From positions 2,656,001 to 2,720,000 of the forward strand of contig CM000152.2 in NCBI GenBank assembly GCA_000004695.1: DNA of 64,000 nt, written 5' to 3'. The DNA is from Dictyostelium discoideum (taxonomy: Eukaryota). A model generated the notes under the pieces. It ran no database searches. It was not told where the DNA came from and saw only the letters and a program-made list of their open reading frames with translations. The position numbers and the translations under genes were made by a program. Of this stretch, positions 26,767 to 44,611 are shown one piece after another (positions within the stretch are counted from its first letter, which is position 1; each line of letters opens with the position of its first letter).

Positions 26767-26866
26767 NNNNNNNNNNNNNNNNNNNNNNNNNNNNNNNNNN
26801 NNNNNNNNNNNNNNNNNNNNNNNNNNNNNNNNNNNNNNNNNNNNNNNNNNNNNNNNNNNNNNNNNN
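26767..26866. other. Assembly gap (100 N)
   Basis: A run of exactly 100 n characters. Its flanks cannot be assumed contiguous. Confidence 0.99.
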
Positions 26867-26997
26867 TAGATAACAAACCAAAACCATCAATTTCACTATT
26901 TGCAAATAAAACAAGGAAAGGAAGAGAGAATAGATCAATATTATATTACCTTTTAATATCAATTAAAAATCAAATATCAAATGATGATTTTTTAATT

Positions 26998-27540
26998 ATG
27001 GAACAATTAGTAACTATATGTTTTAAATTATATAGTGACTCTTTTGATGAAAATGATTTAAATTCACTTCAAGTATTAATTGAATCATTTAATGCAAAAG
27101 TAAATTTAATTACTGAAACAGAAATAATGAATTTCCACTTGTTGTTACATTATCCAATCTATATAAAAAATTGGGGTGCACCAAAATACACTTCAGCTGA
27201 AACTTTTGAAGCACAATTATCAAGAATTAAAAATTATTTAAATAATAATACAAATAATAGGGATGAACAATATGAAAGGGTTACCAAATTAAACATGGTG
27301 AAATTTTTTAATTCAGTAGATAAATTAAAAAGTATTGAGCCTGAAAGTACAGCATTAATTATTGGTAACAAAATAAAAAATCCAGGTAATATAGATAATA
27401 TAAAAATTAAATTAGATTCATTATTTCAAAATTATAAAAATATAACTTTTCACTCATCAATTAAAAATAATAAAGAAATATACAATATTGGTGATGCAGT
27501 TGAAGTTGCATCAGATAATGAACTTTCAGGTATGTTGTAG
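26998..27540 (+). CDS. Hypothetical ORF (180 aa) ending exactly at the terminus of the Tdd-4-like transposon
   Basis: A 180-aa ORF with reasonable composition and no recognised domain. Its final codons ATG TTG TAG overlap the terminal TGTTGTAGGG of the inverted repeat, so the C-terminus is probably created by the insertion. Confidence 0.3.
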   Translation: MEQLVTICFKLYSDSFDENDLNSLQVLIESFNAKVNLITETEIMNFHLLLHYPIYIKNWGAPKYTSAETFEAQLSRIKNYLNNNTNNRDEQYERVTKLNMVKFFNSVDKLKSIEPESTALIIGNKIKNPGNIDNIKIKLDSLFQNYKNITFHSSIKNNKEIYNIGDAVEVASDNELSGML

Positions 27541-27735
27541 GGAATTTTCCATAAAATTTCACTACAGTAGCGTAGTGAATTTTATTATTTAATTTCACTA
27601 CAGTAGCGTAGTGAAAAAAAAAAATCACTGACCTTAAATTTTTTTTTTTTTCAAAAAACAAATAAAGTTTATTAAATTGAAATTTTATTTTTTGTTTTAA
27701 TTATTATTTTATTTATTTTTATTATAATTATTGTT

Positions 27736-27774
<39 letters not shown>

Positions 27775-28549
27775 CAATTTTTTTTTTTAAATTTTTTTCA
27801 TTTTTTATTTGTTTATTAAATTGTATTTTTATTTTTTGTTTTAATTATTATTTTATTTATTATTATTGTTAATTTTTTTTTTTTTTCAATTTTTTTTTTT
27901 TTAATTTATTTTTATTAATTTATTTTTATTAACTCCCTGAGTTGTTCAATTGCTTGATTTACCATATCACTGTAAACACTGCACACAATTGAATTTTTTC
28001 TAGCTTTGTTACCTCTGGTGCATTTGATGTTTTTGCATTTTCCTTTGTATACAAAAAAGTCCAAATATAATTCGTTTTCTATTACAGTTTTTACACAATG
28101 TTGGTGAAATTGTTTTGATTTTAATTCTAATGCTTCTAACATCATATTTGAATTTTTAACGATTAAAGCATCACCACTATTTACATATAGTACTTTGGCT
28201 GCTTTTTCGAGGAATTTAGTCAAATTTTCCTCTGAATCTAACTATTCTTCATTGCCATATTCAATGGCTAAATTTCTTAAGAGTTTTATCGAATCTATTA
28301 ATTCTTCGATCATTCTTTTTTTTTGAAATTTTTTTTTATTTTGTTTTTTCAATTTTTTTTTTTTATTTTGTTTTTTCAATTTTTTTTAAGTTTTATTTTT
28401 TTTTATTTTTTTTTATTTTTTTTAACAAATGTAATTTTTTTTTATTTTTTTCAATTTTTTTTTTTTTTTAATTTTTAATTTTTTTTTTTTTTTTTAATTT
28501 TTTGTGTTGATTTGTGTTTTTTTTGTTTTTTTGATTTGGCCACTTGTTT

Positions 28550-31500
28550 TTATTTTCTAATTTCCCCATACCCCCTTCTATTAATTGCAACCAAATCAAG
28601 TTCTAATTTTTGTGTCCTTGTTAACTTTGTTTTTGCAACTTTTTTTGAAGGTATCACATTAACGATTTTTCCTATTGATGGTGATTTGGAAGGTGATTTA
28701 AATGGTGATTTAAAAGGTGAATTGGAAGGTGATTTAAATGGTGAATTGGAAGGTGAAATGGATGGTGATTTGGAAGGTGATTTAAATGGTGATTTGGAAG
28801 GTGATTTAAATGGTGATTTAAATGGTGAATTGGAAGGTGAAATGGATGGTGATTTGAGAGGTGATTTGGATGGTTTAGAATGTGATTTTAAAGGAGGTTT
28901 ATTAACAATTGGTATCTTATGAGGACGGCCTCTGAGACGTTTAACAGTTGTTACTATACCACTACCAGATTGTGGTATAGTATACGATGGTATTATTTGC
29001 ACTTGAGGTATTGGTGGTACTATTTCTTTTAAATTCATATCCTTTCTCAAACAATTCATTAAATTTGGCGCTGTTGGATTATTATTTAAAAATGGGAGTA
29101 TTTCTTCTTGTTCCATTTCATTATTGAGTTTGTGTTGAAATGGATTATCGTTAATGATAGGTGGAATATTTGATGGATTGTTAAGAGCATCTTCCAAAAC
29201 CCTAAATGGATCATTTTGTGTTACCAATTGATGCAAGTTGAAATTGGATAAATCCTTACCAAGATTTTTAATAAACTGAACCAGAAATTCAATAACTTTC
29301 CCATCATTATTTAAATAAAGACCAGAAGTAAAAGAATCAATATCTTTTTGTATGTTTGGCGATGTTCTAAAAATATCAACTGTTGATTGTTTATAAAGAA
29401 CCAACTTGTTACCTCCTACAAAACCAGAGTATAAACCTTTTTTTTGAAGGCTATTGATTCCATCTTCCAAAAATTCAAGTTTATAAAGTTGTTTAGTGTC
29501 TTCCTGTATTACCTTATGAATTTTACACAAAATCAATATTTTCTATTAGAATTAAATATAAAATTTGTTAATTATTACTGTTTCATATATTATTAATCTT
29601 TATGTTTTAATTACTTACATTATTTTTTTTAATTTCTAGAAAGAGTACAGTATCACCAACTTTCAATCCCTTTGGTGGTTTTGAATTCCATTGATTTTGG
29701 TAACTTGTGAGATTTTCAAGAATAATAGCTGTTCTTTCTTCTTTTGAAACATCTGAAACACCAATTGATTGAGAGTCTTGTTCTGATTGAACATTAATAA
29801 ACAAAGGAACAATACCAACAGCTTGAGATGGTGTCATTTTAATTGTTCTTGTTTTTGTATTATTGTAATCATACAAAGCTTGTTTTAATAGTTCAGAAAG
29901 AGACCTAGAAGTACCATCAAGAAAACTAAAATTTATTTATAAATGATTAATTAATAAACATATCGATAATTTATATTGTTCACAATATCATACTCTTGTT
30001 GTTTTAATTTTGAGATCCTCTCCTTGATAGTTCGATTCAATCTTTCTACCATACCTTGAGTTGTTGGTGTACGAGGAGCTCCATGTGCTGACTTGGAGCC
30101 TGGAAAAAGTTTTAGGAATTCTTTTTGGACTTTGTTTTTAAATTCACGTCCATTATCGCAGTGCCATACTTTCACAGGTTTGCCAAAGTACGTGAGAGCC
30201 AAAAAATTGTATATGGGAACTGTTCTCTTTGTTGTCAAACATCTAAAAAATAAATGATAATTAAAATAAAAAAAGAAAACTAATAAATTAATAAATAAAA
30301 AATAAATACCTTCCAGTAGCAAATTTTGTAAAAGAATCTATGCATAGAATAATGTAAACAACATCGGTGTCGTACGGTTGTACAGAGTCATATTGGATAA
30401 GATCATCTAGTTTAGTTAGTATCTTTTCATTATCATCATCGTATGTAACTTTTTCTTTATGTTCACCTTTAATTGATGTTAAATCATAAACCAATCTTGA
30501 GTATTCCTCGGTATCTACAATTGGAGCAAAATCCTTTGTTATACCTATTAATTTATTTAAATTATTAAAAGAGTTTTAATATAAAAGTTACAAAACATCA
30601 TATAAAAATGATTGATACCAAACCTTTTATTCTATTTCGTTGGCAAATGTCACACGTATCTACTGCATCAGATACAAAAGAATACAATCCCATATTATAA
30701 TATTTAGTCTTGTAGTTCCCATAGGTTGCATCTCTTCCTACACAGCGAAGAAAAAACCACCTTTAAATTCGCTTTAAATTAAATTTAAATTTGCTTTAAA
30801 GTCCTGAATTAAAGCAATTTTAAAGGTAATTTTAAAGGTAATTTTTAAGGTTACTTTAAAATCACCTTAAAAATTACCTTTAAAATTCCTTTAAAAATTA
30901 CTTTTTTAATCGCTTTAAAAGCGAGGTCCTGAGTTCGAAGCCGTTATTTAACGGATAAATTTTTTAAAATTTTTTTTTTAATTTTTCAAAAAATTACCAA
31001 AAGGGATTCGATCCCCCGACCCTCTATCAAAGGGTAGTCTCATCAACCATTACACCATTTGATTGCTTTGATGAAAATTTAAAAATGATAGAATATTTTA
31101 TCCCCATTTTTTTGTTCTAAAATTAGATCTTTTTTATTAAAAACCTTAAATTTATGTTTAAAGGAAATTTAAATTCACTTTAAATCTACTTTAAATCTAC
31201 TTTAAATTCTATTTAAAATTAATTTAAAATAAATTTTAAAGGTATTTTTAAATATCTTAAAAATTATCTTAAAAATTACCTTAAAAATCACCTTTAAAAT
31301 CACCTTTAAAATCACCTTTAAAATTGCTTAAAAATTTATTTTAAAGCAAATTTTAAAGGCATTTTTAAATATCTTTAAAATTACCTTAAAAATTACCTTA
31401 AAAATGAATTTTTTAAACGCGGCTTTAAATTCAATTTAAATCCAATTTAAATCAACTTTTCTTTAAATTTGCTTTAAAGGTGCATTTTTCTTTGCTGTGT

Positions 31501-31808
31501 ATATGACCTTTATGCATTTCTTCCCAGAGTGATACCATTCTATAATCATTAATTACTTCTAAACACACTTCTTTTGATATATTTCTATCTCCGCCACAAT
31601 TCATGACTTTTTTTTCAATTCTAAATAATTTTTCTTTTCTGTTTCTGTTTTTTATTGGTCAGAATTTAAAAAATGATTGTGTTATTGTAAGGAAAAATAT
31701 TTACTCATCATGTAAAAATTTATAATTTTTATGTTTAGTATTTTCAAAATTATTATCTTCAATAAATTTTAAATAATTTATAATTTCATTTATTTTATCT
31801 TGTTTCAT
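28550..31808 (-). CDS. Integrase-like DDE transposase of the Tdd-4-like element (multi-exon, about 700 aa; one exon disrupted by a nested insertion)
   Basis: ATG at 31808 (MKQDKINEII...). An HHCC zinc-finger-like region lies at about 30560..30700 (CDICQRNRIK), downstream of the insertion. The catalytic core lies at about 29950..30480 (DTDVVYIILCIDSFTKFATGR; WHCDNGREF; GAPRTPTTQGMVERLNRTIKE). The C-terminal SPxK/KSP repeat region is ORF 28550..29536. Exons are separated by short AT-rich GT..AG introns. The exon at about 31503..31640 is interrupted by the 30741..31499 insertion. Confidence 0.55.
30741..31499 (+). mobile_element. Unclassified ~760-bp TIR element (TTTAAAGG-type tandem arrays plus tRNA-derived core), copy 1, nested in the transposase exon
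   Basis: Terminal inverted repeats CACAGCGAAGAAAAAACCACCTTTAAA ... TTTAAAGGTGCATTTTTCTTTGCTGTG. Each half carries arrays of 8-10-bp units (ttaaaggta, ttaaaatcacc, tttaaatct and similar). The centre has a tRNA-like segment with a B-box-like GGGATCGAATCCC and an ACCCT-TTGATAG-AGGGT anticodon-like hairpin, but it does not fold as a complete tRNA. Confidence 0.6.
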
Positions 31809-31823
31809 TTTGGGAAAATGAAA

Positions 31824-31858
<35 letters not shown>

Positions 31859-32134
31859 TGTTGGGGAAAAAAAAAAAAAGTTTTGGCGCAAAAAAAAAAA
31901 AAAAAATAAAATAAAAAAAAAAAAAAATAAAATAAAAAAAAAAAAAAATAAAAAAACTTATATAGAACTAATAATCAAATAAAAGATAATAATTTAATAA
32001 ACTTTATTTGTTTTTTGAAAAAAAAAAAATTTAGGGTCAGTGATTTTTTTTTTTCACTACGCTACTGTAGTGAAATTAAATAATAAAATTCACTACGCTA
32101 CTGTAGTGAAATTTTATTGAAAATTCCCTACAAC

Positions 32135-35100
32135 ACCGACTCTCAAATGTTTAATCGTCCCAAACAGAGAAAACATGGATAAACCCAAGATTATAATTAA
32201 CTCTCATTCCAAAGAAAAACAATTCAAATTAATTCTCGATACTGGAAGTAATGTTAGTTTAATCAATAAGAGGTTGATTTCAAAAGATATGAAGAACCAC
32301 GTTCACAAAACCAAAGCCAAGATTAACTTCCCGCTACTAGACGTCAAAGAAGAGTTTGTTGAACAAATCAATATGCAAGTTAACAATGAAATTCATAACT
32401 TCTTTATTATAGAATTGGATATCATTGATGTACTTTTCGGTAATGATATCCTTAAGGACTCTATCATTAACCAAAAAGATAAAATAATCAAGTTGAATAA
32501 TAGTACATACAAAATTAATTATCAACAGTCGAATCAATTACATTGTAATGTAAAAGCTCCAAGAAAACATGTTACCGTATCCAATGATAATCAGTCACAT
32601 AATCTACTGGATGATGATGAAGATATCAAAGAACAAGTTACAAAGTTTGTTGAAAGCATTCCTTCACAACTTTGTGATATACTGGTTAAAACTAATCCAG
32701 AAGAAGAAGAGATACAAGCAGTACGAGATTTCATTAATGACTCATTCGAAGATGTTATAGTAGATAAACTTCCTGATATTCCAGATCAGATTAACAATTC
32801 CAGAAGAGGTAATATCATACATAATATCATAATCAAGAAAGGTCAAGATGTTGAACCAACAAAGAAACAAATCTATTACTCAACAGATGATCATAAGAGA
32901 CATGTCGAAGAGATGGTTCTCAAATTTATAGACTTAGGTATTATCAAAAGATCAGAATCAAATTACTCATCTCCAATCATGTTATTAAAGAAGAGAGATT
33001 CATGGCGTGTAGTCCACGACTATCGTCAACTAAATAAAGTCACTGTTAGAGACGATCATCCATTCACTCCGGTTGATAGTCTTTTAAATCAATGTAAAGA
33101 TTCAAAGCTTTTCTCAAAGTTTGACATGATTATGGGTTATTTCCAAGTGTTAATTAATCCAGAACACGCAAAGTACACCGCTTTCATTACACATATTGGT
33201 AAATTTGAATATACTAGAATGCCACAAGGTTTAGTCAACTCTCCATCCACATTCGCCAGATTGATGGTCGAAATATTTGGAAAAATCAAAAGTTTATTAC
33301 AATACTTTGATGATCTTTTGGTTCATTCAAAACTCGACTACATGGTACATTTCATTGAAATCATTAGAATGCTTCTATATTGTAGAAAGTACCTATTATT
33401 CATTTCAAGAGAAAAGAGTGAAATGTTAAAGACTGAAGTTGATTTCCTTGGTTTTCACATTCATAAAGATGGTATATCTCCAAGAGCTGCAAAGGTTAGA
33501 GCTATCTCTGAGTTACCTGAACCAAGAAACGCCAAAGAAGCTGAAGCTGCATTAGGTCTTTTTGGATTCTTCAGGAGACACATTGAAAATTACGCTGAAA
33601 AAACCTATCACCTTTCCAAAGAATCAAAAGGGAAAAACAAGAAAACTCTTTCTGATGAATCACTCAAAGAATTCAATAATCTAAAGAAAGAGTTTGAAGG
33701 TGAAAATATTGTCGCTATTCCAATTGAACAAGATAACTCCATATCAATAGATATCGAAAAGGTTAAAGCATCAACAGACATGCCAATCCATTCAGATAAT
33801 AATAATATAAACAATGGTAGTTTTCACTTGTATTGTGATGTTAGTGATAAAGCATTATCAGGTGTGTTATATCAAATCCAAGGTGATAAATTCAAAGTCA
33901 TTTGGTTCCACAGTAGAAAACTTACTGATACTCAAAAGAGGTACAGCATAGGTGATAGAGAGTTCCTTTCAATCATTGATTCTCTAAAGAAGTTTCAACA
34001 TTTATTAATTGGTAAAAAGGTTTCAATCTACACTGATCACCAAAATCTTACATATATTATCAATAAGTCAAACGATAAACCGTTCACAAAGAGACAAGAT
34101 AATTATATGAAATATATTAAAGAATTTGATTATGAATTAAGACATATAAGTGGTAAAAAGAATGGTATAGCTGATTTCTTGTCTCGTAAATATGATAATT
34201 TCCAATGGGATGAATCGTTTTTAAATAAAATTAAGGAAGAACAAATCAATTCTCAATGGCTATTAGAGATGAAAAAGAATCCAAATTTATGCATTGAAGA
34301 AATTAATGATATCTGCTACCTTAGTGAAGATGGGTTCAAGAAATTAATCATCATAGATAAAGAAACTATTCATACCGTCATTAGAGAATATCACGATACC
34401 AAATATAGTGGTCATCACGCTTTAGATATCACATACAATAATATAAGACAAGATTACTATTTCAAAGAAATGTTTTCTATTATCAAGAGGTACATAAAGT
34501 CTTGTGCAACATGTCAATTGAACATTAACCGTAAAGATAATGGTATACTCCAAAGTTTAGAAATTCCCTTTGAAGTTTGGAGAGATATATCAATCGATTT
34601 CTTATCGCTACCAAAAACAATGTATGCAATAAACGGATTTACAGTTGAAGTCGATCAAGTTTGTGTCATTGTTTGTAGATTATCTAAAATGGTTCATATA
34701 GTTCCATGTCATAAGACAATAGATGCCCAACATACTGCTCAATTATTGTTGAATCATGTGTTCAGACTCCATGGTTATCCAAGAACAATCGTCTCCGATA
34801 GAGATCCAAGGTTCCTTTCAGAAATATGGGAGAGATGGGCAAAGACGATGGATTCTAAACTCAAGATGACTGTGGCACACAGAGCACAAGCTGATGGTCA
34901 AACTGAAAGAATGAATAGAGAAATTATTAGAATATTAACTAAAGCCTCTACAGAGTATGGGGAGAATTGGTCAGATATCATTCCACTTATTGAATTTGCA
35001 ATGAACTCATCAATGAGCAAGTCTACAAAGATGTCACCATTCCAAATCGTTTATGGATTCAATCCACCAACTCCCGTTAATCACTTCAATTCATTAACAA

Positions 35101-36430
35101 AGACTCGTATACCAATGAGCAACATCAAAAAGATTGTCCGTGATAATATACTAGATGCTCAAATCAATGCTCAAAAGTACTACAACCGAGGTCGTGGTGA
35201 TGTTATCTTCGTAGTCGGAGAAAAGGTTATGGTTAAAAGAAAATTCTTCCAAACTAACCTTTCAAAAGATCTAATCTCTCATAAACTTGAATCCAAGAAT
35301 TGTGGACCATTCATAATCACTGCCGTTCATGGTAATAATGTAACACTCGATTTAGTAGGTTATCCAAAGAAACACAATGTGTTCAACAAGGATCAAATCG
35401 TAAAACTATATGAGGACAGTGAGTGGTTAAGAGAAGAGATATCGATGCCCGAACCTGAGGAGATGGACGAAGCAAGTTACGAAGTTGAAAGTATTCTCAA
35501 TCACGATAAAGTCAAAAAGATGTACCTAGTGAAGTTCAAAGGTTACCCAGAACCTGAATGGATCAAAGAAGTCGATACAGACTGTGAAGAGTTAGTCAGA
35601 GAGTATTGGAATAACGTGCAGAAGAAACAATTGAACTCAAGAAGAGAAAGAGAGAATGTAACTACAGAAGCCGTTGAGCCAATTGTGTCACCTCCGCTCT
35701 CCCAAGAAGTTCAAAGTTCTCAAACATTGCAACCAATTACTCCAAGACAACAAAACTCCATCTCAAATCAAAGAAACCAATCAAAGAAAAGAAAATCAAG
35801 AAATCAAAATACTCAAAGTGATGATGATGAACTTGATCTTAGTTTACAAATTAAAACAACTAGATCAGGAAGAAAAGTTACACCCAAGAGTTTATAGTCC
35901 ACCTCTGAGCCATAGCTAGCCTAAAGAAGGAAGGGGAAGGTGTTAGAGACTCAAAACTAAATTAATTTAAAGTTAGTATGAGCTCAACAACGTAACAAAT
36001 TCGCGCATCTCCATATAAAAATATTTCATTTAATTTTTATTTTTATTTTTTAATTTTTTATTTTTTCAGTCAAAAAATAAAAAATTAAATTAAAAAAAAT
36101 TAAATTAAATTAAAATTTAAAAAAATAATAAAAATTCTGATTTTCGGTTTAGTTGGCATAACGCCCTTACTTTTAATTATCTCTTTTATGTATGTTTACT
36201 TTTATGATATTAGTCTTTCACTCTTTCTATCCTTCATATTAAAATACATTACTTTAAAGATTGGACTGTTTGATTTAAGATTGAATAAATGTGACAATGG
36301 ATTGAAGATTAGTGTGAGTGACTTTTACACTATCGGAGATGAATCATTTAATAATTTGTCAATAGGTAATGTATTAGGAAATGCAAATGCTCCAAACCCA
36401 ATGGAAAACCAGAGAATAATAATTAGAAGA
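32135..36430 (+). mobile_element. Skipper-like (chromovirus, Ty3/gypsy) LTR retrotransposon, 5'-truncated by the Tdd-4-like insertion, with a partial 3' LTR
   Basis: The pol ORF starts mid-protease right after the transposon terminus. A polypurine tract AAGAAGGAAGGGGAAGG at about 35915..35932 is followed by a TG-initiated LTR-like sequence from about 35935. That sequence is cut off at 36430 by another element. Confidence 0.55.
32175..35897 (+). CDS. Pol polyprotein (protease, RT, RNase H, integrase, chromodomain), 1240 aa
   Basis: Protease LILDTGSN. RT YXDD motif QYFDDLLVHS. Integrase HHCC (HHALDITYNN...CATCQLN) with a DDE core. C-terminal chromodomain YEVESILNHDKVKKMYLVKFKGYPEPEWIKEVD. Confidence 0.8.
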   Translation: MDKPKIIINSHSKEKQFKLILDTGSNVSLINKRLISKDMKNHVHKTKAKINFPLLDVKEEFVEQINMQVNNEIHNFFIIELDIIDVLFGNDILKDSIINQKDKIIKLNNSTYKINYQQSNQLHCNVKAPRKHVTVSNDNQSHNLLDDDEDIKEQVTKFVESIPSQLCDILVKTNPEEEEIQAVRDFINDSFEDVIVDKLPDIPDQINNSRRGNIIHNIIIKKGQDVEPTKKQIYYSTDDHKRHVEEMVLKFIDLGIIKRSESNYSSPIMLLKKRDSWRVVHDYRQLNKVTVRDDHPFTPVDSLLNQCKDSKLFSKFDMIMGYFQVLINPEHAKYTAFITHIGKFEYTRMPQGLVNSPSTFARLMVEIFGKIKSLLQYFDDLLVHSKLDYMVHFIEIIRMLLYCRKYLLFISREKSEMLKTEVDFLGFHIHKDGISPRAAKVRAISELPEPRNAKEAEAALGLFGFFRRHIENYAEKTYHLSKESKGKNKKTLSDESLKEFNNLKKEFEGENIVAIPIEQDNSISIDIEKVKASTDMPIHSDNNNINNGSFHLYCDVSDKALSGVLYQIQGDKFKVIWFHSRKLTDTQKRYSIGDREFLSIIDSLKKFQHLLIGKKVSIYTDHQNLTYIINKSNDKPFTKRQDNYMKYIKEFDYELRHISGKKNGIADFLSRKYDNFQWDESFLNKIKEEQINSQWLLEMKKNPNLCIEEINDICYLSEDGFKKLIIIDKETIHTVIREYHDTKYSGHHALDITYNNIRQDYYFKEMFSIIKRYIKSCATCQLNINRKDNGILQSLEIPFEVWRDISIDFLSLPKTMYAINGFTVEVDQVCVIVCRLSKMVHIVPCHKTIDAQHTAQLLLNHVFRLHGYPRTIVSDRDPRFLSEIWERWAKTMDSKLKMTVAHRAQADGQTERMNREIIRILTKASTEYGENWSDIIPLIEFAMNSSMSKSTKMSPFQIVYGFNPPTPVNHFNSLTKTRIPMSNIKKIVRDNILDAQINAQKYYNRGRGDVIFVVGEKVMVKRKFFQTNLSKDLISHKLESKNCGPFIITAVHGNNVTLDLVGYPKKHNVFNKDQIVKLYEDSEWLREEISMPEPEEMDEASYEVESILNHDKVKKMYLVKFKGYPEPEWIKEVDTDCEELVREYWNNVQKKQLNSRRERENVTTEAVEPIVSPPLSQEVQSSQTLQPITPRQQNSISNQRNQSKKRKSRNQNTQSDDDELDLSLQIKTTRSGRKVTPKSL

Positions 36431-36913
36431 CACAGCAAAGAAAAATGCACCTTTAAAGCAAATTTAAAGAAAAGTTGATTTAAATTGGATTTAAATTGAA
36501 TTTAAAGCCGCGTTTAAAAAATTCATTTTTAAGGTAATTTTTAAGGTAATTTTTAAGATATTTAAAAATGCCTTTAAAATTTGCTTTAAAATAAATTTTT
36601 AAGCAATTTTAAAGGTGATTTTAAAGGTGATTTTAAAGGTGATTTTTAAGGTAATTTTTAAGATAATTTTTAAGATATTTAAAAATACCTTTAAAATTTA
36701 TTTTAAATTAATTTTAAATAGGATTTAAAGTAGATTTAAAGTAGATTTAAAGTGAATTTAAATTTCCTTTAAACATAAATTTAAGGTTTTTAATATCTTT
36801 TGATCAATTCATATGATTAAAATAACCCTTCAGCTTAAATGATAAGCCTTTAAATAAATATTAAATAAAACTCGTATTAACACAGATGGACATATATCAA
36901 TCTTGTTAATCCA

Positions 36914-36965
<52 letters not shown>

Positions 36966-37140
36966 AAGCGATTAAAAAGGTAATTTTAAAGGTAATTTTA
37001 AAGGTAATTTTTAAGGTGATTTTAAAGTAACCTTAAAAATTACCTTTAAAATTACCTTTAAAATTGCTTTAATTCGGGACTTTAAAGCAAATTTAAATTT
37101 AATTTAAAGCGAATTTAAAGGTGGTTTTTTCTTCGCTGTG
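36431..37140 (-). mobile_element. Unclassified TIR/TTTAAAGG element, copy 2 (inverted); its central tRNA-like core is replaced by a TRE 3'-end fragment
   Basis: 36431..36795 is the reverse complement of the right half. 36796..36963 is a non-LTR 3' end (tcttttgatcaattcatatgattaaaataaccc...) plus A45, identical to the tail at 43138..43292. 36964..37140 is the reverse complement of the left-half terminus. Confidence 0.55.
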
Positions 37141-37289
37141 GAGTTCCAAGGCCAACTGTTCCACCAATCCAAGAAACAGTGCAAATAACCACAAACCCAC
37201 GTGTAACATACATATTGGAATACGAAAGTCTTCAAAAAGTTTGTCAAAGTAAATACTATTCAGATGGCGATGTATGTTACCAGATTAAT

Positions 37290-37335
<46 letters not shown>

Positions 37336-37608
37336 TTAAATAAATAGGTTTCAAATTTCTTTATTACTGGAATAATTAAACAAGCTGGTGGTAGTAACGA
37401 AGATTGTACCAGTCAAAATATTTTTGCAAGGTTAACGAAATGGGTAAGTAATAAGGAAAGTAACCCAAGAACAAAAGTAGCTGGCAGTTTAGCCATTTAT
37501 TCAAAAGGTGAGAAAAACCACAATTTTAAAGTTTATATTTTCGATAGCCAAGTATTTTTTGGTAATGAAATTGTGTGTATAAATTAATATAATCAAAATT
37601 TACAAATA

Positions 37609-37651
<43 letters not shown>

Positions 37652-37922
37652 AAATATAGTTTTCCCCTGCTTTACTTTCTCTTTTTCTCAACCACATTAA
37701 TTATGAAAATTATCAAAATGATATTTTCATAAAAGAGTTTGTTGACTCTTGTAAAACAGGTGAAGAGAAACACTGGTACCCAGATTCAGTTCCTTTAATA
37801 AAGAGATTAATTTCAATATTAAATGATTTTAGTAGTAAATTTGACTCTAAGGCTAAAATGAGAAAAGATGCACAAGAAGCTTTTCAATTTCCTAATTCTG
37901 CACTTTACTTAAATTCTTCCCA
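37141..37922 (+). CDS. Remnant 3' exons of a host gene (hypothetical), 5' part displaced by transposon insertions
   Basis: Coding-like frames with GTAAGT donors and AG acceptors: about 37141..37293 (VPRPTVPPIQETVQITTNPRVTYILEYESLQKVCQSKYYSDGDVCYQ), about 37335..37448, and 37667..37922 (...DIFIKEFVDSCKTGEEKHWYPDSVPLIKRLISILNDFSSKFDSKAKMRKDAQEAFQFPNSALYLNSSQ, then stop). No domain recognised. Confidence 0.3.
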
Positions 37923-37989
37923 ATAAAAGTTTTAAAATAATTTTTAAAATTTAAAAATAAATTTTATTATTAAAAAATAATATATCTGT

Positions 37990-38447
37990 GTATTTTATTT
38001 TTCACTTAAAATTTTATTTCATACTATAGTTTTAAAATAATTTTTAAATTTTTTTTATTTATTTTTGTAGCATTATTAATAAGGTGCTTTTAAATGTAAT
38101 TATTAATAAACTTTAAAATTCAATTTTTAAGGAGCTTTAAAATGTAATTATTAATATAATTTTTAATCATATTTTTAAGTAATTTTAAAGAGCATTATAA
38201 AGATAATTTTAAAGGGCATTTTAAACTTAATTTTAAAGAGCATTATAAAGGTAATTTTAAAGGTCATTTTAAAGGTAATTTTCAAGGTCATTTTAAAGGT
38301 GATTTTAAAGGTGATTTTAAAGGTGATTTTAAAGGTCATTTAAAAAATTGCTTTTAAATTAATTTTTAAGTGACTTTTTTATAGGACTTTAAATCCACTT
38401 TTAATTTAATTTAAAGTTGCTTTAAAGGTGTAATTTTCATCGCTGTG
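37990..38447 (+). repeat. Unclassified TIR/TTTAAAGG element, diverged half-copy (right half ending ...CATCGCTGTG)
   Basis: Arrays of ttaaaggtgatt/ttaaaggtcatt units ending in the characteristic terminus ggtgtaattttcatcgctgtg. It abuts the 5' truncation point of the non-LTR element. Confidence 0.5.
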
Positions 38448-39027
38448 AATCGAAGCCATCAGAATTTCAAATAACCTAATGGATATGGACCAACTAAATA
38501 AAAGACCCACCTTCTCAAGAACGATACACAACACAAACAATAACCTCACAAGAATCTTGGAAAGGAGACTAGACAGAATATACCTTAACAATAGCTTAAT
38601 CAACTACAGCCAATTATACTTAAGGAACCTAATCCCCCCAAAAATTAACGACATACCTCTATCAGATCACAACTTCCTATCAACCACTTTCACTCTACCC
38701 AACATACAGATGAACAAGCGCAGATGGAGATTAAAAAAATCCTCAATCCTCTCAAGCATAATGCTTAAGAAAATAGACTTCCTACTTAACGATTATTCAA
38801 GGGAGCTGTCATCCAACCATAACTCTATTTCCTTCTCTCAACTCAACAGCTTACTGAACAAAATAAAACAACTATACACCGAATTTCAAAAACAAAACGA
38901 CTACAACAATAAGGCAAACATCAAAAATCTAATCTCCCTACTAGAGACATAATTTAAAGACCAAGCCTTCGCAACCCTTTCAGCAATAAATGAATCTAAA
39001 AAAAGAGAAGAACAACTTAAACAAGAA

Positions 39028-40215
39028 TTGAACAACTATTGCGAAGAAACCTCACTCAAGTACATCTCCGCGAGAATCAAGAAAAGACACAATGATTTCA
39101 CCATCAACGCAGTAAAAGATGTACAAGGTAGAACAAATAACAAACAGGAATTGATCGAAGAAGAATACGTAAAATATTACTCAAATCTTTATGACTACAA
39201 AGAAGATGACCCACTATCTCATTACGAAATGTTGGAAAATTGGACAGTGACCAGGGACTCAACATGGGACAACCTTGAAAATGAATTCACCTCACAAGAA
39301 ATCCTAGAAGTAATAAAACAACTGAACCCACACAAATCTCCAGGTCCAGATGGAATTCCAAACTTATTCTACATAACACACAAAGAAAAACTAGCTCCAA
39401 TACTGGCCTCAGCATTCAACGACACTCTAAGAAATCCTCATCTAAATAGCAAAAATTACAAAGAAGGCCTCATTATCACGATACCTAAAAAGGGAGACCC
39501 CGAACTAATCAAAAACAGAAGACCAATTACACTGGCTAACTGTATATATAAAATCCACTCAAAGCTAATAAACAATAGAATAATCCCAATACTAACGAAA
39601 GTGATCAACCACTATCAAAAAGGTTTCGTACCAGGCAGATTCATTATAGATAATATCATATCAATGAACGAATTAATCAACTATTGTAATGATAAAAGAA
39701 TTAACGGAATAATTACACTATATGATTTCGAAAAAGCTTTTGACTCGATCTCACACGGTTCAATACTTAGATCACTACAACACATCAACATTCCAACCAA
39801 TATAATCAACCTGATAATGAATCTACTCACCAAATCTGAAGCAAGAATTGAAATTAATGGTAGAACTACTATACCCTTTGAGATCAAAAGAGGAGTTAAA
39901 CAAGGAGATCCACTATCACCCACACTGTTCGTCCTTGTAATAGAGGCTTTAGCTAGAAAAATTTTACAAGATGATCGAATTACTGGCCTTCCTCTAAACA
40001 ACAGCAACCACAGAGAGAAATTCCAAAGCTTTGCAGACGACTCGGCTTCAATGGTCCCAGACTCTCAACAACTTGAATTAGTACTACAACACTTCAATTC
40101 ATTTTGCAAAGCCACTTCCTCAAAACTAAACATCGACAAATCTTCATCAATTCTTATAGGCAACCCAGACAATACCAACACAGCGAAGAAAAAACCACCT
40201 TTAAATTCGCTTTAA
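39028..40215 (+). CDS. Reverse transcriptase segment of the non-LTR ORF2 (395 aa), C-terminally cut by the nested insertion at 40179
   Basis: LINE-type RT motifs. The reading frame runs into the inserted element (...NTNTAKKKPPLNSL then stop) and resumes in ORF 41720..43162 after the insertion. Confidence 0.7.
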   Translation: MNNYCEETSLKYISARIKKRHNDFTINAVKDVQGRTNNKQELIEEEYVKYYSNLYDYKEDDPLSHYEMLENWTVTRDSTWDNLENEFTSQEILEVIKQLNPHKSPGPDGIPNLFYITHKEKLAPILASAFNDTLRNPHLNSKNYKEGLIITIPKKGDPELIKNRRPITLANCIYKIHSKLINNRIIPILTKVINHYQKGFVPGRFIIDNIISMNELINYCNDKRINGIITLYDFEKAFDSISHGSILRSLQHINIPTNIINLIMNLLTKSEARIEINGRTTIPFEIKRGVKQGDPLSPTLFVLVIEALARKILQDDRITGLPLNNSNHREKFQSFADDSASMVPDSQQLELVLQHFNSFCKATSSKLNIDKSSSILIGNPDNTNTAKKKPPLNSL

Positions 40216-41722
40216 ATTAAATTTAAATTTGCTTTAAAGTCCTGAATTAAAGCAATTTTAAAGGTAATTTTAAAGGTAATTTTTAAGGTTACTTTAAAAC
40301 CACCTTAAAAATTACCTTTAAAATTACCTTTAATTACCTTTTTAATGGCTTTAAAAGCGAGGTCCTGAGTTCGAAGCCGTTATTTAACGGATAAATTTTT
40401 TAAAATTTTTTTTTTTAATTTTTCAAAAATTACCAAAAGGGATTCGATCCCCCGACCCTCTATCAAAGGGTAGTCTCATCAACCATTACACCATTTGATT
40501 GCTTTGATGAAAAATTTAAAAATGATAGAATATTTTATCCCCATTTTTTTGTTCTAAAATTACACAGCGAAGAAAAAACCACCTTTAAATTCGCTTTAAA
40601 TTAAATTTAAATTTGCTTTAAAGTCCTGAATTAAAAAAATTTTAAAGGTAATTTTAAAGGTAATTTTTAAGGTTACTTTAAAACCACCTTAAAAATTACC
40701 TTTAAAATTACCTTTAAAATTACCTTTTTAATGGCTTTAAAAGCGAGGTCCTGAGTTCGAAGCCGTTATTTAACGGATAAATTTTTTAAAATTTTTTTTT
40801 TTAATTTTTCAAAAATTACCAAAAGGGATTCGATCCCCCGACCCTCTATCAAAGGGTAGTCTCATCAACCATTAAACCATTTGATTGCTTTGATGAAAAA
40901 TTTAAAAATGATAGAATATTTTATCCCCATTTTTTTGTTCTAAAATTAGATCTTTTTTATTAAAAACCTTAAATTTATGTTTAAAGGAAATTTAAATTCA
41001 CTTTAAATATACTTTAAATCTACTTTAAATCCTATTTAAAATTAATTTAAAATAAATTTTAAAGGTATTTTTAAATATCTTAAAAATTATCTTAAAAATT
41101 ACCTTAAAAATCACCTTTAAAATCACCTTTAAAATCACCTTTAAAATTGCTTAAAAATTTATTTTAAAGCAAATTTTAAAGGCATTTTTAAATATCTTAA
41201 AAATTACCTTAAAAATTACCTTAAAAATGAATTTTTTAAACGCGGCTTTAAATTCAATTTAAATCCAATTTAAATCAACTTTTCTTTAAATTTGCTTTAA
41301 AGGTGCATTTTTCTTTGCTGTGTAGATCTTTTTTATTAAAAACCTTAAATTTATGTTTAAAGGAAATTTAAATTCACTTTAAATCTACTTTAAATCTACT
41401 TTAAATCCTATTTAAAATTAATTTAAAATAAATTTTAAAGGTATTTTTAAATATCTTAAAAATTATCTTAAAAATTACCTTAAAAATCACCTTTAAAATC
41501 ACCTTTAAAATCACCTTTAAAATCACCTTTAAAATCACCTTTAAAATTGCTTAAAAATTTATTTTAAAGCAAATTTTAAAGGCATTTTTAAATATCTTAA
41601 AAATTACCTTAAAAATTACCTTAAAAATGAATTTTTTAAACGCGGCTTTAAATTCAATTTAAATCCAATTTAAATCAACTTTTCTTTAAATTTGCTTTAA
41701 AGGTGCATTTTTCTTTGCTGTG
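40179..41722 (+). mobile_element. Unclassified TIR/TTTAAAGG element, copy 3: rearranged left-left-right-right double copy inside the non-LTR ORF2
   Basis: Two tandem left halves (40179..40563 and 40564..40947), each with the tRNA-like core, followed by two tandem right halves (40948..41329 and 41330..41722). The host sequence ACCAA is duplicated at both flanks, a possible 5-bp target-site duplication. Confidence 0.55.
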
Positions 41723-43259
41723 AACCAAAGAATTCCAATATCTACAAATCCAGAAAGATACTTGGGATACTTCTTCACAGGTAAAGGGATAACAAGAAAA
41801 ATGCCAGAAATATTAAACACAATAAGATCATCCTTAGTACTATGGAAAACCACTGACTCAACAATCAAAACCAAAACCAACATCCTCAAAGCATTCGCAC
41901 TCTCTAAATTAACCTACTATTCATATGTAGAGAACTTTAAGGAAGAGGAATTAAACCAAATCAATAAATTAGTCGAATGGTTTTTATCGGCACCAAACAA
42001 CAAAAATGCTAGTGGATTTCAAGTTATTAATTTAATGAGAACCAAAAGAGCAAGATACCCACTAAAAGTAGGGGGCTGGAACATTTGGAATATAGAATTG
42101 AGACAACTGGCGCAGAAACTTTGGATCATAAACCAGTTCATCCTAGCACTAGAAACCAAACAAACAAACTCATCTCATCACAAAAGCTGGGAATATCAGA
42201 TCCAAAAAAACAAATTCACATCCAGATACCTAAAAGAAAACTTAGACGAATGGAACAAAATAAGAATAAAAAAAGCAATCTTCAACAATAATCTCACATC
42301 CATAAAAAACGAAAATGGACAACCACTTTCACTGGCAGAATGGTATACCACAATTCAAGACCAAAATCCAACCATCCCTAAAACGGAATTCCAATCATCT
42401 CTAAACTTAAGAGGCTACAGCTATAATCAACTCTTCAACAACATACTGAAGATAAAAGACCCTAAAACAAGAGACACAATGTTTAGATTCCATGCCAGAT
42501 GCCTTCCAATAAACTACCTTCACAACAAACAATGCCCACTCTGCAAAGAAGATATGAGCAAAGACCCATACGGTCACCTGTTCTTCTCATGCAAGAAAAC
42601 AAAACAATTCATAAAAATAAATAAACTCAAAAATTTCATCTATATTACCACAGGCAAAGGTAAAAACTGGCACCATACAAGAATTAGGCAAAATAACAAT
42701 TTCATTAATAGAATAACTCCAAAATTATCACCGACAGCCAAAAAAGATCAAGAAGTGAATGCAGATTACGCCAACCACAGATTCCACAAAGAATACTTTG
42801 AATGGAACTATAAAGCAATAGACTATGATCTAACCAGATCATTCGCATATAGAAACCTAATGGCCCTTATCCTCCACAACATTTGGATTTGGATTTGCAA
42901 TCAAATATACAGTGAAGATCCTTTAACAGATGAATCACTATCATACAGCTCCCTTCTAAAGAAATGGCACAAATTGGCCACTCTAGAATACATCAAAAAA
43001 GCAAAAGATCTGAAAAACTTATCAGCAAAAGACCATAATAACTTCAAAGATCCTAAGATCCTTCTCACTTCAACGATCAAGCTAAGAAAAACAACAGCTA
43101 ATTACTATTGTATTCCAGAATCATCTCTCCCAAATATTATATCTTTTGATCAATTCATATGATTAAAATAACCCTTCAGCTTAAATGATAAGCCTTTAAA
43201 TAAATATTAAATAAAACTCGTATTAACACAGATGGACATATATCAATCTTGTTAATCCA

Positions 43260-43292
<33 letters not shown>

Positions 43293-44488
43293 TAAAGACC
43301 CAATCGATTAAAGAAATAATTAAAATAAGATTCGAATTTAAAACTCTTTCAAAAGATCCGGGCAACTTTAAAGACCAAAACGATTTCCAAAAACAAATAA
43401 TTAAATTAAGAAAACTAACCTGCAAAGTTTACTCCATCCTGTGATCAGTGCTTCCAAATCTTATATCATTGGATCAATTCATATAATCTTTATTACAACA
43501 CATTTTAATAATTCATATAATTCAAAAAAATAAAAAAAAGAAAAACTTCTTAATTTTTAATATTAAAATCCATAAATAAAACTATTAATTATTGTTTATA
43601 TTCCTTTCCAGAAAAACTGTAATTAATCAATATATATAAAAAAAAAAAAAAAAAAAATTCAAATAAAATATTTGTCGATTATGTAAAATAAATTAAAAAA
43701 AAAAAAAAAAAAAATCTAAATTAACACTTTATTAAATTAAGATCAAGTAAATAATTAATTAATATCTAAAAACAAGAACACTTTGATTGGGGACAAAAAT
43801 ATGTAAACTATGACCTATTCAGAACCTTTGTATTTAGAACATAAAGACATTAATAAAATCTGGTTTGGAAAGATCAACTGGTTTAAAAAAATTCCTTATT
43901 TGATAATTCAAATTAAAAAAGGAATCTAAACATTTTTAAAAAAGGAATCTAAACATAAATAAAACCATGAATTATTATTTTCTTTAATTTTTTATTTTTT
44001 TATTTTTTATTTTTTATTTTTTTTTAATATTGATTAATCAATGTTTATCCATTAATGGAAATAAACAGGTTAATTTTCTTAATTTAAAATCTTTTGCTTT
44101 TGTACCATTTGTTGGTTAGAGTATGAGAGTTTTTAATCTCTGTTCGTTCGTCTTTATGTTTCTATATGCTAATGTTCTGGATAAATCATAGTTTACACAT
44201 TTATAACCCCATTCGAAATATTCTTTGTGGAATCTTAGATTTGCCTAGCCTAAGTTGACCTCATGGTCTTTCCTTATATTTGGTGGAATTATAGGTTTAA
44301 ATCTGTTAATTTATTGTTTGATCTAATTCAATAATGGGTCCAGTGTTTTACTCTACCTGTGGCAATGAAGATGAAGTTTTTCAATCTATGAGGTTAAATA
44401 ATAAATAAAATAATGTTTTCATAAAATTAAAGACTTTTTTTGTGAAATCAAAGAATTGCTTAATATATGTTAGCATATATCTAAATAC

Positions 44489-44499: not shown

Positions 44500-44524
44500 A
44501 ACGATCGTATAAAGAATTCTTAAA

Positions 44525-44597: not shown

Positions 44598-44611
44598 CTA
44601 ATCGAGCTTTT

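Follow-up and report, generated by a model that had tools for sequence, protein, structure and literature searches.

A repeated unit of ~760 bp in Dictyostelium discoideum was found to be a non-autonomous DNA transposon of class II (cut-and-paste), with four copies in the 64-kb stretch of DNA that was analyzed (the window), as seen in Table 1. We consider it probable that this is DDT-S, the short member of the DDT family, mobilized in trans by larger CMC-like relatives and carrying a Pol III-like core. The tRNA-like module of the core has been kept in the stripped-down element, where no other part is as well conserved.

Perfect 2-bp target-site duplications (TSDs) flanked all 13 short copies scored in the window and at other D. 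discoideum loci (four in the window, one more in L001, five in L005, two in L007 and one in L010). Identical 2-bp flanks would arise by chance with a probability of 0.103 per copy and 1.4e-13 for all 13. A preliminary description of this DNA had asked for the flanks to be checked and had overlooked these duplications. The duplicated sequence was TA in 4 of the 13 copies and TT, AA, TC, GA, AT, GT or CT in the other nine; there is no strict target sequence, and TA and T-rich sites are enriched. Integration involves a 2-bp staggered cut, which yields the 2-bp TSD. Removal of a copy plus 2 bp restored three host ORFs, and paralogs lacking the insertion were present for all three sites. Without copy 1, an HHCC zinc-finger ORF was restored, and the uninterrupted Tdd-4 proteins P0121/P0141 read ...HKGHIGRDATY... 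over this site. Without copy 2, one continuous 276-aa ORF of a larger relative was obtained (uninterrupted paralog P0163), and without the outer copy an 862-aa ORF, 100% identical to the uninterrupted P0001. Since the 2-bp TSDs are accompanied by restored host reading frames, the short element is a non-autonomous DNA transposon.

Table 1. Features of the short element and its larger relatives in the window (TIR, terminal inverted repeat)
Feature	Position	Strand	Observation
Copy 1, 759 bp	30741..31499	+	Within Tdd-4 integrase-like ORF; TA TSD 30739-30740 / 31500-31501
Left 27-bp TIR, copy 1	30741..30767	+	Terminus search
Left arm, copy 1	30768..30920	.	Phased 11-12-bp TTTAAA units
Near-perfect hairpin in left arm, 88 nt	30808-30895
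Extra B-box-like / T-arm-like piece	30925..30942	+	GGTCCTGAGTTCGAAGCC; ~50 bp downstream of tRNA-like unit
tRNA-like unit, copy 1	30994..31064	-	A-box-like TGGTGTAATGG, B-box GGATCGAATCC, then T6 run
Right arm, copy 1	31135..31472	.	Phased 11-12-bp TTTAAA units
Right 27-bp TIR, copy 1	31473-31499		Terminus search
Copy 2, inverted	36431..37140	-	GA TSD 36429-30 / 37141-42
Copy 2, right arm	36431-36795
Copy 2, foreign filler	36796-36964
Copy 2, left arm	36965-37140
Outer copy	40179-40562 + 41325-41722 (span 40179..41722)	+	In TRE3-type reverse-transcriptase ORF; AA TSD 40177-78 / 41723-24
Inner copy	40563..41322	+	Inserted in outer copy at TA; TSD 40561-62 / 41323-24
Further tRNA-like units	40430-40500; 40816-40886
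Candidate transposase of larger relative, C-terminal fragment of big ORF	26867..27532	+	99.4% identical to L006
276-aa ORF gene of larger relative	36329..37926	+	Exons ~36329-36430, 37143-37277, 37348-37584, 37660-37926
Right-terminal array + TIR of larger relative	37927..38447	+	TIR 38420-38447, CACAGCGATGAAAATTACACCTTTAAAG on minus strand

The copies had been described as nested in other transposons, and this was borne out, the hosts being a Tdd-4-like ORF, a TRE3-type reverse-transcriptase ORF, a larger relative and a copy of the element itself. The host of copy 2 had been misassigned to a Skipper LTR; this LTR occupies 35941-36331, and copy 2 lies outside it, interrupting codon 48/49 in exon 1 of the 276-aa ORF. 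The region 40179-41722, once attributed to slippage or unequal exchange, is a full copy (40563-41322) inserted in another copy, with TA duplicated on both sides. Independence as TIR-bounded units held for four of the five items, which are non-coding, mobile and not parts of one larger element. It failed for the supposed half copy at 37990-38447, which is ~75% similar to the short element and represents the terminal array and TIR of the larger relative; over the first 156 bp of copy 1, the terminal region of this relative is 77.7% identical.

The replacement of the core in copy 2 was confirmed, with 122 bp identical (122/122) to a TRE 3' end at 43142-43263, followed by A45. The orientation of this TRE fragment to the tRNA-like unit differs from that of canonical TRE3. 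An independent long-read assembly, GCA_054883475.1, has the same copies at the same sites as the window. Its counterpart of copy 2 has an intact core and carries a nested full copy, which lies 6 bp from the nested site of the window in the opposite orientation and is an independent event. The two assemblies differ by ~5 substitutions in 9.2 kb, yet the structure of copy 2 is different. The element has been recently active, as seen in the mean pairwise identity of the 13 short copies (98.9%), in TIRs that are invariant or nearly so across them, and in this structural difference between near-identical assemblies.

A search of the window for the terminus CACAGCGAAGAAAAAACCACCTTTAAA with up to three mismatches gave eight occurrences versus zero expected, all at exactly the positions where 27-bp inverted termini had been reported. 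The left (CACAGCGAAGAAAAAACCACC) and right (CACAGCAAAGAAAAATGCACC) ends differ constantly at 3 of the 27 positions. The element has the form 5'-CACAGC...GCTGTG-3' with an imperfect TIR. The four window copies of ~760 bp aligned end to end and were mutually 98-99% alike. Subterminal arms of ~150 bp and ~340 bp enclose a core of ~215 bp, in which a degenerate tRNA gene, with A and B boxes and a T-run as terminator, is accompanied by a second B-box-like piece. TTTAAA occurs 34 times in the arms, over 759 bp, a density of 44.8 per kb (background, 3.8 per kb), and is spaced nearly always by 11-12 bp or multiples; this measured period of 11-12 bp replaces the 8-11-bp units given before. The number of units in the right arm differs from copy to copy. 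When the left-arm hairpin was compared with miRNA families, every match was far under the gathering score, and the hairpin is to be read as hairpin potential only. The short element has no coding capacity and no poly(A) or 3' tail. It also occurs in the AX4 reference, where the DDB_G0282355 protein ends in HSKEKCTFKANLKKS, the translated element terminus.

The tRNA-like unit occupies nucleotides 254-324 from the left end. The components previously ascribed to the core were all located, namely GGGGGATCGAATCCC with a 5-bp stem and 7-nt loop on the minus strand and the separate GGTCCTGAGTTCGAAGCC piece. The latter is preserved in diverged copies, and similar external B boxes are found at the genuine D. 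discoideum tRNA genes in our data. ARAGORN called no tRNA in the core, and the Rfam tRNA model RF00005 scored 14.8 bits (E=1.9) against a gathering score of 29. A true tRNA gene was rejected on these grounds, in agreement with the earlier view that the core is tRNA-derived and does not fold as a tRNA. Between subfamilies, identity was 94% in the tRNA-like unit, 89% in the remaining core and 73-77% in the arms. The substitutions in the unit fell in the anticodon stem-loop and left the A and B boxes intact. In D. cf. discoideum, the B box and trailer are identical at 24/24 positions and the anticodon differs. Part of the difference in conservation between core and arms may be due to rapid change by slippage in the repetitive arms.

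Relatives of autonomous size (~5.2 kb once inserts are subtracted) have CACAGC termini, 11-12-bp TTTAAA arrays and a 2-bp TSD, as does the short element. One (L012 6361-11518) is 5158 bp long, with TSD AA, an intact 831-aa ORF and a 276-aa gene. Another (L011 6584-17094) has TIR CACAGCAATGAAAAATGC... and TSD TC, carries genes for 772-aa and 247-aa proteins, and measures ~4.8 kb once three nested elements are subtracted. At L006 13442-15194, the 27-bp terminus matches the right TIR of the short element at every position and leads into a zinc-finger ORF. In the window, the 276-aa ORF gene (homologs P0159, P0160 and P0163) is interrupted by copy 2, across which the two parts of exon 1 (~36329-36430 and 37143-37277) are joined, and is truncated upstream by the Skipper LTR. 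The C-terminal fragment of the large ORF follows a 100-N gap and is cut at 27533 by a Tdd-4 end. Besides this gap, the window has one doubtful junction.

The large ORF protein (772-831 aa) has an N-terminal C2H2-type zinc finger and gave no Pfam match, no PDB match and no DDE_1 or Tc1-type domain. A candidate motif order of D..D..C(2)C..H(3)H..E, conserved between the 831-aa and 614-aa ORFs, includes CHTC at residue 407 and HLLLH at 612, with SAETFE thereafter; no profile match was significant. The tRNA-like module was absent from the autonomous-size relatives examined. Therefore, the short element is not a simple deletion derivative of those seen, and its direct parent, presumably DDT-B, is not among them.

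Most probably, the short element is DDT-S, a catalogued repeat, judging from descriptions of DDT rather than from sequence comparison. DDT elements (DDT-A, DDT-B and DDT-S; Glockner et al. 2001) are putative DNA transposons of the same host and lie in transposon clusters. The DDT-B consensus is 5471 bp, with an A/B-box motif within nucleotides 1-428 that is a proven target of TRE5-A (Barth et al. 2022, PMC9012585), and the transposases of DDT reportedly resemble none that are known (PMC5633606). The present family likewise has a long member of ~5.2-5.5 kb with unfamiliar ORFs (5158 bp and ~4.8 kb, against ~5.5 kb for DDT; 772-831-aa ORF), A/B-box-like sequences within ~430 bp of one element end and a short non-coding member. 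The DDT name is used because size class, A/B box and ORFs without known similarity agree, which is circumstantial; in contrast to DDT-B, the long relatives found here have no A/B-box module. The arrangement agrees with that of the published '428-1' fragment, where TRE5-A sits 46 bp upstream (PMC9012585), and the two motifs would then be the same. The earlier statement that no Dictyostelium family matches is probably wrong for DDT, given larger relatives with the same type of ends and an A/B-box motif in DDT-B (PMC9012585).

The enzyme appears to be of the CMC/CMCT type (Mirage-like), as suggested by termini, TSD length, subterminal repeats and motif order rather than by significant alignment. 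Mirage gives 2-bp TSDs, and the subterminal arrays of En/Spm are built from a ~12-bp unit. The CMCT clade (EnSpm/CACTA, Mirage, Chapaev, Transib, Plavaka) is characterized by 5'-CA..TG-3' termini and 2-5-bp TSDs (PMC12730594), and the CACAG...CTGTG termini and 2-bp TSD found here lie within this description; the candidate motif order of the large ORF would be a further likeness. However, there was no significant sequence or profile match to CMC transposase models, the subterminal unit here is a phased TTTAAA, and a Pol III promoter module is foreign to CMC elements. MITEs and internally deleted elements (Ds, dSpm, Stowaway, Made1) are similar in having no ORF, ends in common with longer relatives, homogeneous copies and hairpin arms, but the short element is longer, at 760 bp, and has a tRNA-like insert that the long relatives seen do not have. 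Foldback (FB) elements of Drosophila also have arms of short tandem units in inverted orientation. FB elements have 9-bp duplications and much longer, variable arms, and no relation is implied.

That the element is instead an uncatalogued family, a short DDT-like derivative that is none of DDT-S, thug-T or the Repbase entries, is unlikely. The element could be tied to no named repeat at the sequence level, and it was not recognized in the preliminary description, but it is present in the AX4 reference, and many 760-bp copies with 98-99% identity would hardly be overlooked by a census. The repeat census of 2001 reportedly claimed a complete list of complex repeats, the short DDT member included. 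Identity with thug-T, the other member of the thug class, is quite improbable, even though the element is small, non-coding and located inside other elements, and the class makes up ~0.1% of the genome, which is compatible with a few dozen copies. thug-S was identified through its published multi-copy miRNA, miRNA_can_D3 (PMC4894637), which mapped to another element, 2 kb in length and present in L001 and L005, and to no copy of the short element. It is a small TIR element with hairpin-rich ends from the same transposon clusters, but it has TGTCCCATGCC... ends, 6-bp TSDs (GTTGCA, AATAAG) and a 178-aa ORF, which points to a different integration chemistry. If thug-T has the ends of thug-S, the short element cannot be thug-T. 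thug-S itself was rejected because the short element has CACAGC... ends, 2-bp TSDs and no sequence similarity to it. A derivative of Tdd-4/Tdd-5 (Ginger2), which have Tdd-type TIRs and a 5-bp duplication (PMC2836005), was rejected on the 2-bp TSD in 13/13 copies and on the Tdd-4 ends, TGTTGTAGGG.... The earlier exclusion of thug-S and Tdd was correct.

A Stowaway-like MITE moved by a Tc1/mariner or pogo transposase would account for the 2-bp duplication, among which TA is the commonest (4 of the 12 copies oriented), and pogo-like gene fragments are present in these genomes; the hairpin also weakly matches mir-548-type (mariner-MITE-derived) models. Stowaway/Tc1-type termini are usually CAGT/TACAGT. 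The short element has CACAG termini, 9/13 duplications are not TA where an invariant TA is expected, and the autonomous-size relatives with the same ends encode no DDE_1 or Tc1-type domain, which makes this origin very improbable. The A and B boxes and T-run of the tRNA-like core, the satellite-like look of the arms, and the gap and doubtful junction of the window might suggest a tRNA-derived SINE-like retroposon, satellite or segmental-duplication DNA, or an assembly artefact. We give these hardly any credence. A SINE does not fit the TIRs, the constant 2-bp duplication and the lack of a poly(A) or 3' tail; boundaries are precise and the inverted termini perfect, the same copies occupy the same sites in the independent assembly, and the duplications and restored ORFs refute all of these readings.

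Returning to a DDT transposon, the short element must be mobilized in trans since it has no coding capacity. The family of large relatives would do this, as termini, arrays and the 2-bp TSD are in common, and could supply the 772-831-aa candidate transposase and the 276-aa protein. The tRNA-like core is predicted to bind the Pol III factors TFIIIC/TFIIIB; each copy might then serve as a decoy tRNA gene, with retrotransposons that target tRNA genes, as well as DDT elements, inserting around it. A broader and rather doubtful proposal is that the module is selected and functional in DDT, that putative TFIIIC/TFIIIB recruitment makes a decoy drawing TRE5, TRE3, Skipper-2 and new DDT into the 20-60 bp upstream of the module, that the family is Mirage-like CMC and still excising in laboratory strains, and that the copy-2 allele of the window arose by excision and repair of the footprint, with filler copied from the TRE 6 kb away. 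If true, DDT copies would thereby start and enlarge the nested transposon 'safe havens' of this gene-dense genome.

The short element tends to insert in other mobile elements, itself included, a preference biased by the sampling of loci for transposon content. Insertions of other elements cluster around the tRNA-like core, with few events and loci selected for transposons. Own-family insertions (n=3) lay 20, 54-55 and 60-61 bp upstream of the tRNA-like 5' end, the last being the inner copy in the outer copy. Breaks by a chromodomain LTR element (n=2) were 2-12 bp downstream of the tRNA-like 3' end; the integration sites of Skipper-2 are 8-23 bp downstream of tRNA genes (PMC5006619).

The 27-bp terminus CACAGCGAAGAAAAAACCACCTTTAAA was found at eight sites in the window (≤3 mismatches; none expected by chance), and all eight terminal inverted repeat (TIR) positions of the preliminary description were matched. 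A search with the 14-mer TIR core CACAGCRAWGAAAA added a ninth site, 38434-38447. Copy 1, the inverted copy 2, and both units of the block at 40179-41722 could be aligned with one another end to end. TTTAAA occurs 34 times in 759 bp of the short element (44.8 per kb) compared to 3.8 per kb in the remainder of the window. In the arms, these sites are almost always spaced by 11 or 12 bp, or multiples, and the autocorrelation maxima lie at lags of 12, 24, and 11. The earlier sequence description was largely correct. The left arm includes an 88-nt near-perfect hairpin whose matches to unrelated miRNA models were all sub-threshold, which indicates only hairpin potential.

The short element is a real, non-autonomous DNA transposon that makes a 2-bp target-site duplication and was recently active. 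Direct duplications of TA, GA, and AA flank copy 1, copy 2, and the outer copy at 40179, respectively. Matching 2-bp flanks were seen in 13 of 13 short copies from the window and from the D. discoideum loci L001, L005, L007, and L010. The chance of such a match is 0.103 per copy and 1.4e-13 for all 13. TA was the commonest duplication (4/13), followed by TT and AA, and the duplication therefore has no fixed sequence. Removing the outer copy and 2 bp restored an 862-aa reverse-transcriptase ORF in a non-LTR element, 100% identical to the uninterrupted D. discoideum protein P0001. The same operation on copy 1 regained the H-x3-H...C-x2-C finger of a Tdd-4-type integrase and, on copy 2, gave an unbroken ORF across the insertion site. 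Within the 40179-41722 block, the junctions read ...aaaatTA/CACAG...CTGTG/TAgatc..., compared to ...aaaattagatc... in a single copy. This TA duplication identifies 40563-41322 as a complete copy inserted into another copy, in place of the replication slippage suggested earlier for a left-left-right-right arrangement.

Coordinates and properties of the features discussed, with the identity of copy 1 regions to the diverged short copies of strain ACTFIR
Feature	Location	Description	Identity
Copy 1	30741-31499	short element
Copy 2	36431-37140(-)	short element
Outer copy	40179-40562 + 41325-41722	short element
Inner copy	40563-41322	short element
tRNA-like unit	30994-31064(-)	end-to-end alignment to Rfam tRNA model	94%
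Adjoining core		copy 1	89%
Second B-box region		copy 1	81-89%
Arms		copy 1	73-77%
Spacer		copy 1	68%
GGTCCTGAGTTCGAAGCC	30925-30942	centre of copy 1
Skipper 3' LTR	35941-36331	391 bp; L006 and L007 have 100% identical LTRs
Larger element, 3' part	36329-38447	three-exon 276-aa gene, then terminal array and TIR
Larger element, big-ORF fragment	26867-27532	abuts Tdd-4 end and 100-N gap
Larger element, complete	L011 6584-17094	another D. discoideum strain; TC duplication
Larger element	L012	5158 bp; AA duplication

The proteins encoded near the elements place this DNA in Dictyostelium discoideum. The syntenic locus L001 in assembly GCA_054883475.1, reached through a Skipper-type pol ORF, differs from the window by ~5 substitutions in 9.2 kb plus homopolymer-type indels and carries one short copy that is absent from the window. 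Loci fetched through Tdd-4-type proteins provided eight further full copies (L005, five; L007, two; L010, one). Apart from a deleted copy of 690 bp, copy lengths range from 759 to 772 bp; the mean pairwise identity is 98.9% and the TIRs are essentially invariant. The C-terminus of the AX4 protein DDB_G0282355, HSKEKCTFKANLKKS, is the translated element terminus at the L010 site, and thus the short element is also in the reference genome. In L005, copies at 9108-9867 and 13108-13867 lie upstream and downstream of the ORF in one Tdd-4, both 98.555% identical to copy 1. The 13-copy alignment includes at least one 100% identical pair, which may be this one; if so, it would indicate very recent local transposition or gene conversion.

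All the insertions found sit in other mobile elements: Tdd-4 (the window copy, three in L005, and the L010 copy), a TRE3-type element in the window and a TRE5-type element in L005, a Skipper-type pol in L007, and the short element's own family. No short copy was seen in ~45 kb of gene-rich window DNA or in the host genes of the fetched loci. Since the loci were picked through transposon proteins, the support for a preference for transposons is qualitative. An exact look-up of eight small ORFs within the short element found none in the protein collection, and its six-frame translation gave no protein match at E≤0.001, a weak test with such low-complexity sequence. A TIR scan of JGI metagenome contigs gave 0 matches, and BLAST of joined flanks for empty sites in the window returned only low-complexity noise.

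The stretch 37990-38447, previously taken for a half copy, is the end of a larger, ORF-bearing element: the sequence before 38447 has only ~75-78% similarity to the short element, and its TIR differs. Upstream of its array are two ORF segments, 37348-37584 and 37660-37926. An exhaustive HMMER search with the second found 247-279-aa proteins in D. discoideum and D. cf. discoideum, and these homologs also cover the first segment and the ORF interrupted by copy 2. Residues 15-48 of the related protein P0163 map to 36329-36430 and residues 49-93 to 37143-37277, which begins immediately after copy 2 and the duplicated GA. This mapping defines the 3' part of the larger element (see table), and copy 2 lies in exon 1 of its 276-aa gene. 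Copy 2 had been described as cutting a Skipper-like 3' LTR; the bounds of this LTR, which ends at 36331, place copy 2 100 bp outside it.

The exchange of the copy 2 core for a non-LTR 3' end, noted before, was confirmed. The core is replaced in the window by 122 bp plus A45, and the 122 bp match the 3' end of a TRE 6 kb away at 122/122 positions. Short microhomologies are present at both filler junctions. In the near-identical assembly GCA_054883475.1, the copy 2 core is intact, with a nested copy. The filler may have been copied in to mend an excision footprint, may stem from a 5'-truncated retrotransposition accompanied by loss of target DNA, or may be an assembly error. A canonical tRNA-targeted TRE3 insertion was rejected, as the TRE fragment has the wrong orientation relative to the tRNA-like unit.

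Long members of the short element's family are present in the same window. At locus L006, the terminal 27 bp of such an element are identical to the right TIR of the short element and are followed by ~300 bp of arrays, ~680 bp of AT-rich DNA, and an ORF that begins with a C-x2-C-x12-H-x3-H finger. The complete L011 element has a 772-aa gene (finger plus 614-aa part) and then a 247/276-aa gene; both genes are intact in L012 and L013 from D. cf. discoideum (831 and 276 aa). The L011 element was invaded by a 729-bp short copy (TT duplication, 83% identical to copy 1) and by two 2.45-kb CACAGGGGCG-type elements with AG and TA duplications, which are a third family with like ends and a 2-bp duplication. 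These two (10281-12736 and 12871-15412, ends CACAGGGGCGAAAATCAGTAC...) lie within the long relative's 276-aa gene.

Pfam and PDB sequence searches with the 79-, 88-, 160-, 233-, 614-, and 831-aa ORFs gave only a weak N-terminal zinc-finger signal. The large protein has the residue order D...D, C-x2-C (residue 407), H-x3-H (residue 612), E, which is conserved in both D. discoideum and D. cf. discoideum at 88% identity. Such a residue order, 5'-CA..TG-3' ends, and 2-5-bp duplications are the signature of the CMC/CMCT clade (PMC12730594). From motif order rather than significant alignment, we hypothesize that the large ORF could encode a CMC/Mirage-like transposase. Two other candidates were discarded. 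In L006, an apparent 244-bp inverted repeat that might have marked the two ends of an autonomous partner belongs to two adjacent Tdd-4 copies. The 382-aa and 607-aa ORFs beside some copies, considered as a new transposase, come from Skipper (gag/pol) and from the relative itself. DDT-like elements of both D. discoideum and D. cf. discoideum have neighbouring genes that encode DDE_1 (pogo-type), DDE_Tnp_4 (PIF/Harbinger-type), and HTH_Tnp_Tc5 domains (L012 11301-13267, L013 13321-14625, L010 4126-4557); these superfamilies are not usually listed for this species.

The initial view that the short element matches no Dictyostelium family is probably wrong, and we consider it likely that the element is already catalogued. 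Tdd-4 and Tdd-5 are excluded because they produce 5-bp duplications (PMC2836005) rather than 2-bp ones. thug-S gives rise to a published multi-copy miRNA (PMC4894637), which maps to a separate 2-kb element in L001 and L005 with ends TGTCCCATGCC...GGCATGGGACA, 6-bp duplications (GTTGCA, AATAAG), and a 178-aa ORF; the different ends and 6-bp duplications rule out thug-S. This 2-kb TIR element lies at ~3026-5003 in L001 and at ~7950-8065 and ~17645-17830 in L005, and its terminal hairpins contain the thug-S-derived miRNA_can_D3. The L005 element is split by a Tdd-4 that holds three short-element copies. thug-T is unlikely if it shares the thug-S ends. The literature searched gave no description of the structure of thug-T or DDT-S and no primer table for DDT-S.

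The short element is most likely DDT-S. The published DDT-B consensus, 5471 bp long, has an A/B-box arrangement within nucleotides 1-428 (Barth et al. 2022, PMC9012585), and DDT proteins are said to be unlike any known transposase (PMC5633606). Similarly, the tRNA-like unit occupies nucleotides 254-324 from one end of the short element, and the long relatives are ~5.2 kb with ORFs without known similarity. The placement therefore follows the published DDT description rather than a consensus alignment. In contrast to DDT-B, the long relatives found here lack the tRNA-like module. For both reasons, we infer the name DDT-S rather than assign it.

The tRNA-like unit scored 14.8 bits against the Rfam tRNA model (gathering score 29), and ARAGORN made no tRNA call on the core of the short element, which agrees with the earlier reading of a tRNA-derived centre that does not fold as a tRNA. 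The unit includes an A-box-like TGGTGTAATGG, a perfect 5-bp stem with a 7-nt loop, and GGGGGATCGAATCCC, which matches the external B box beside a genuine tRNA-His gene of L005; a T6 run lies a few bases downstream. An external B box is also present ~30 bp downstream of tRNA-Glu 19535-19607(-) in the window. Compared to the ACTFIR short copies (~82% identical overall to copy 1), substitutions in the unit fall in the anticodon stem-loop and spare the A and B boxes. D. cf. discoideum shares the B box and trailer GGGGGATCGAATCCCTTTTGGTAA at 24/24 positions and differs in the anticodon arm. This conservation is compatible with constraint on the promoter boxes and not on tRNA function. Quicker decay of the repetitive arms could share in the contrast between core and arms.

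Insertions also cluster around the core. Upstream of the 5' end of the tRNA-like unit are two nested short copies, at 54-55 and 60-61 bp, which inserted independently and in opposite orientations, and in L012 a 5.2-kb relative at ~20 bp. In L011, an LTR element with a chromodomain integrase interrupts two short-copy left halves 2-12 bp past the 3' end of the unit; the reported integration range of Skipper-2 is 8-23 bp downstream of tRNA genes (PMC5006619). For TRE5-A, both natural and tagged, integration occurs 46 bp upstream of the DDT-B A/B motif (PMC9012585), and the insertions seen here, few as they are, point in the same direction. The L011 retrotransposon (18059-24449) is apparently intact, with ORFs of 1024 and 526 aa, and is flanked by inverted left halves (17811-18058 and 24450-24698), an arrangement suggestive of recombination after two targeted insertions. 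In AX4, Skipper-2 is described as degenerate. At 43297-44607 in the window, a full TRE (end 43296) is separated from tRNA-Ile(AAT) at 44535-44607(-) by a stack of several poly(A)-bearing TRE 3' ends, as is usual for TRE3 downstream of tRNA genes.

The novelty of the element is low and its catalogue value small, since it is most likely DDT-S, which the reference genome has contained since 2005. Whether the DDT-B A/B box matters to DDT replication was left open by Barth et al. (2022, PMC9012585). The stripped-down 760-bp element appears to retain exactly this module, which is the best-conserved part between subfamilies and also between D. discoideum and D. cf. discoideum, and insertions of other elements and of its own family cluster beside it, making the replication question directly testable. 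From the 2-bp duplication, CAC...GTG ends, and motif order of the large ORF, a CMC/Mirage-like enzyme can be proposed, as a concrete first hypothesis, for this family, the transposase of which has been described as unlike any other. The conserved putative Pol III module, the insertion clustering, and the CMC-like family features are all testable points.

Several possible rearrangements were seen nearby. The window has a 100-N scaffold gap at 26767-26866. The 5-bp flanks of the Tdd-4 copy at 27533-32135 (3842 bp when copy 1 is left out; 27528-32140 with flanks) do not match (aggta and ccgac), and the syntenic GCA_054883475.1 locus is wholly different left of 27533, which suggests that this Tdd-4 is chimeric, rearranged at its end, or mis-joined. 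WD40 and cobalamin-adenosyltransferase genes at 22868-24911 adjoin the transposon cluster; in GCA_054883475.1 (L004), an identical adenosyltransferase protein is encoded ~29 kb away in opposite orientation, which reflects either inversion or duplication, or a difference between the assemblies. Lastly, the C-terminal (SPFKSP)n coding repeat of Tdd-4 (L010 12200-12275 and 13033-13080; window ~28600-28800) repeats every 12 bp at the DNA level (CCATTTAAATCA) and is similar to the short-element arm unit CCTTTAAAATCA, and the L010 short copy is inserted inside this repeat. The resemblance may be coincidence or a hint of a common DNA-binding preference.
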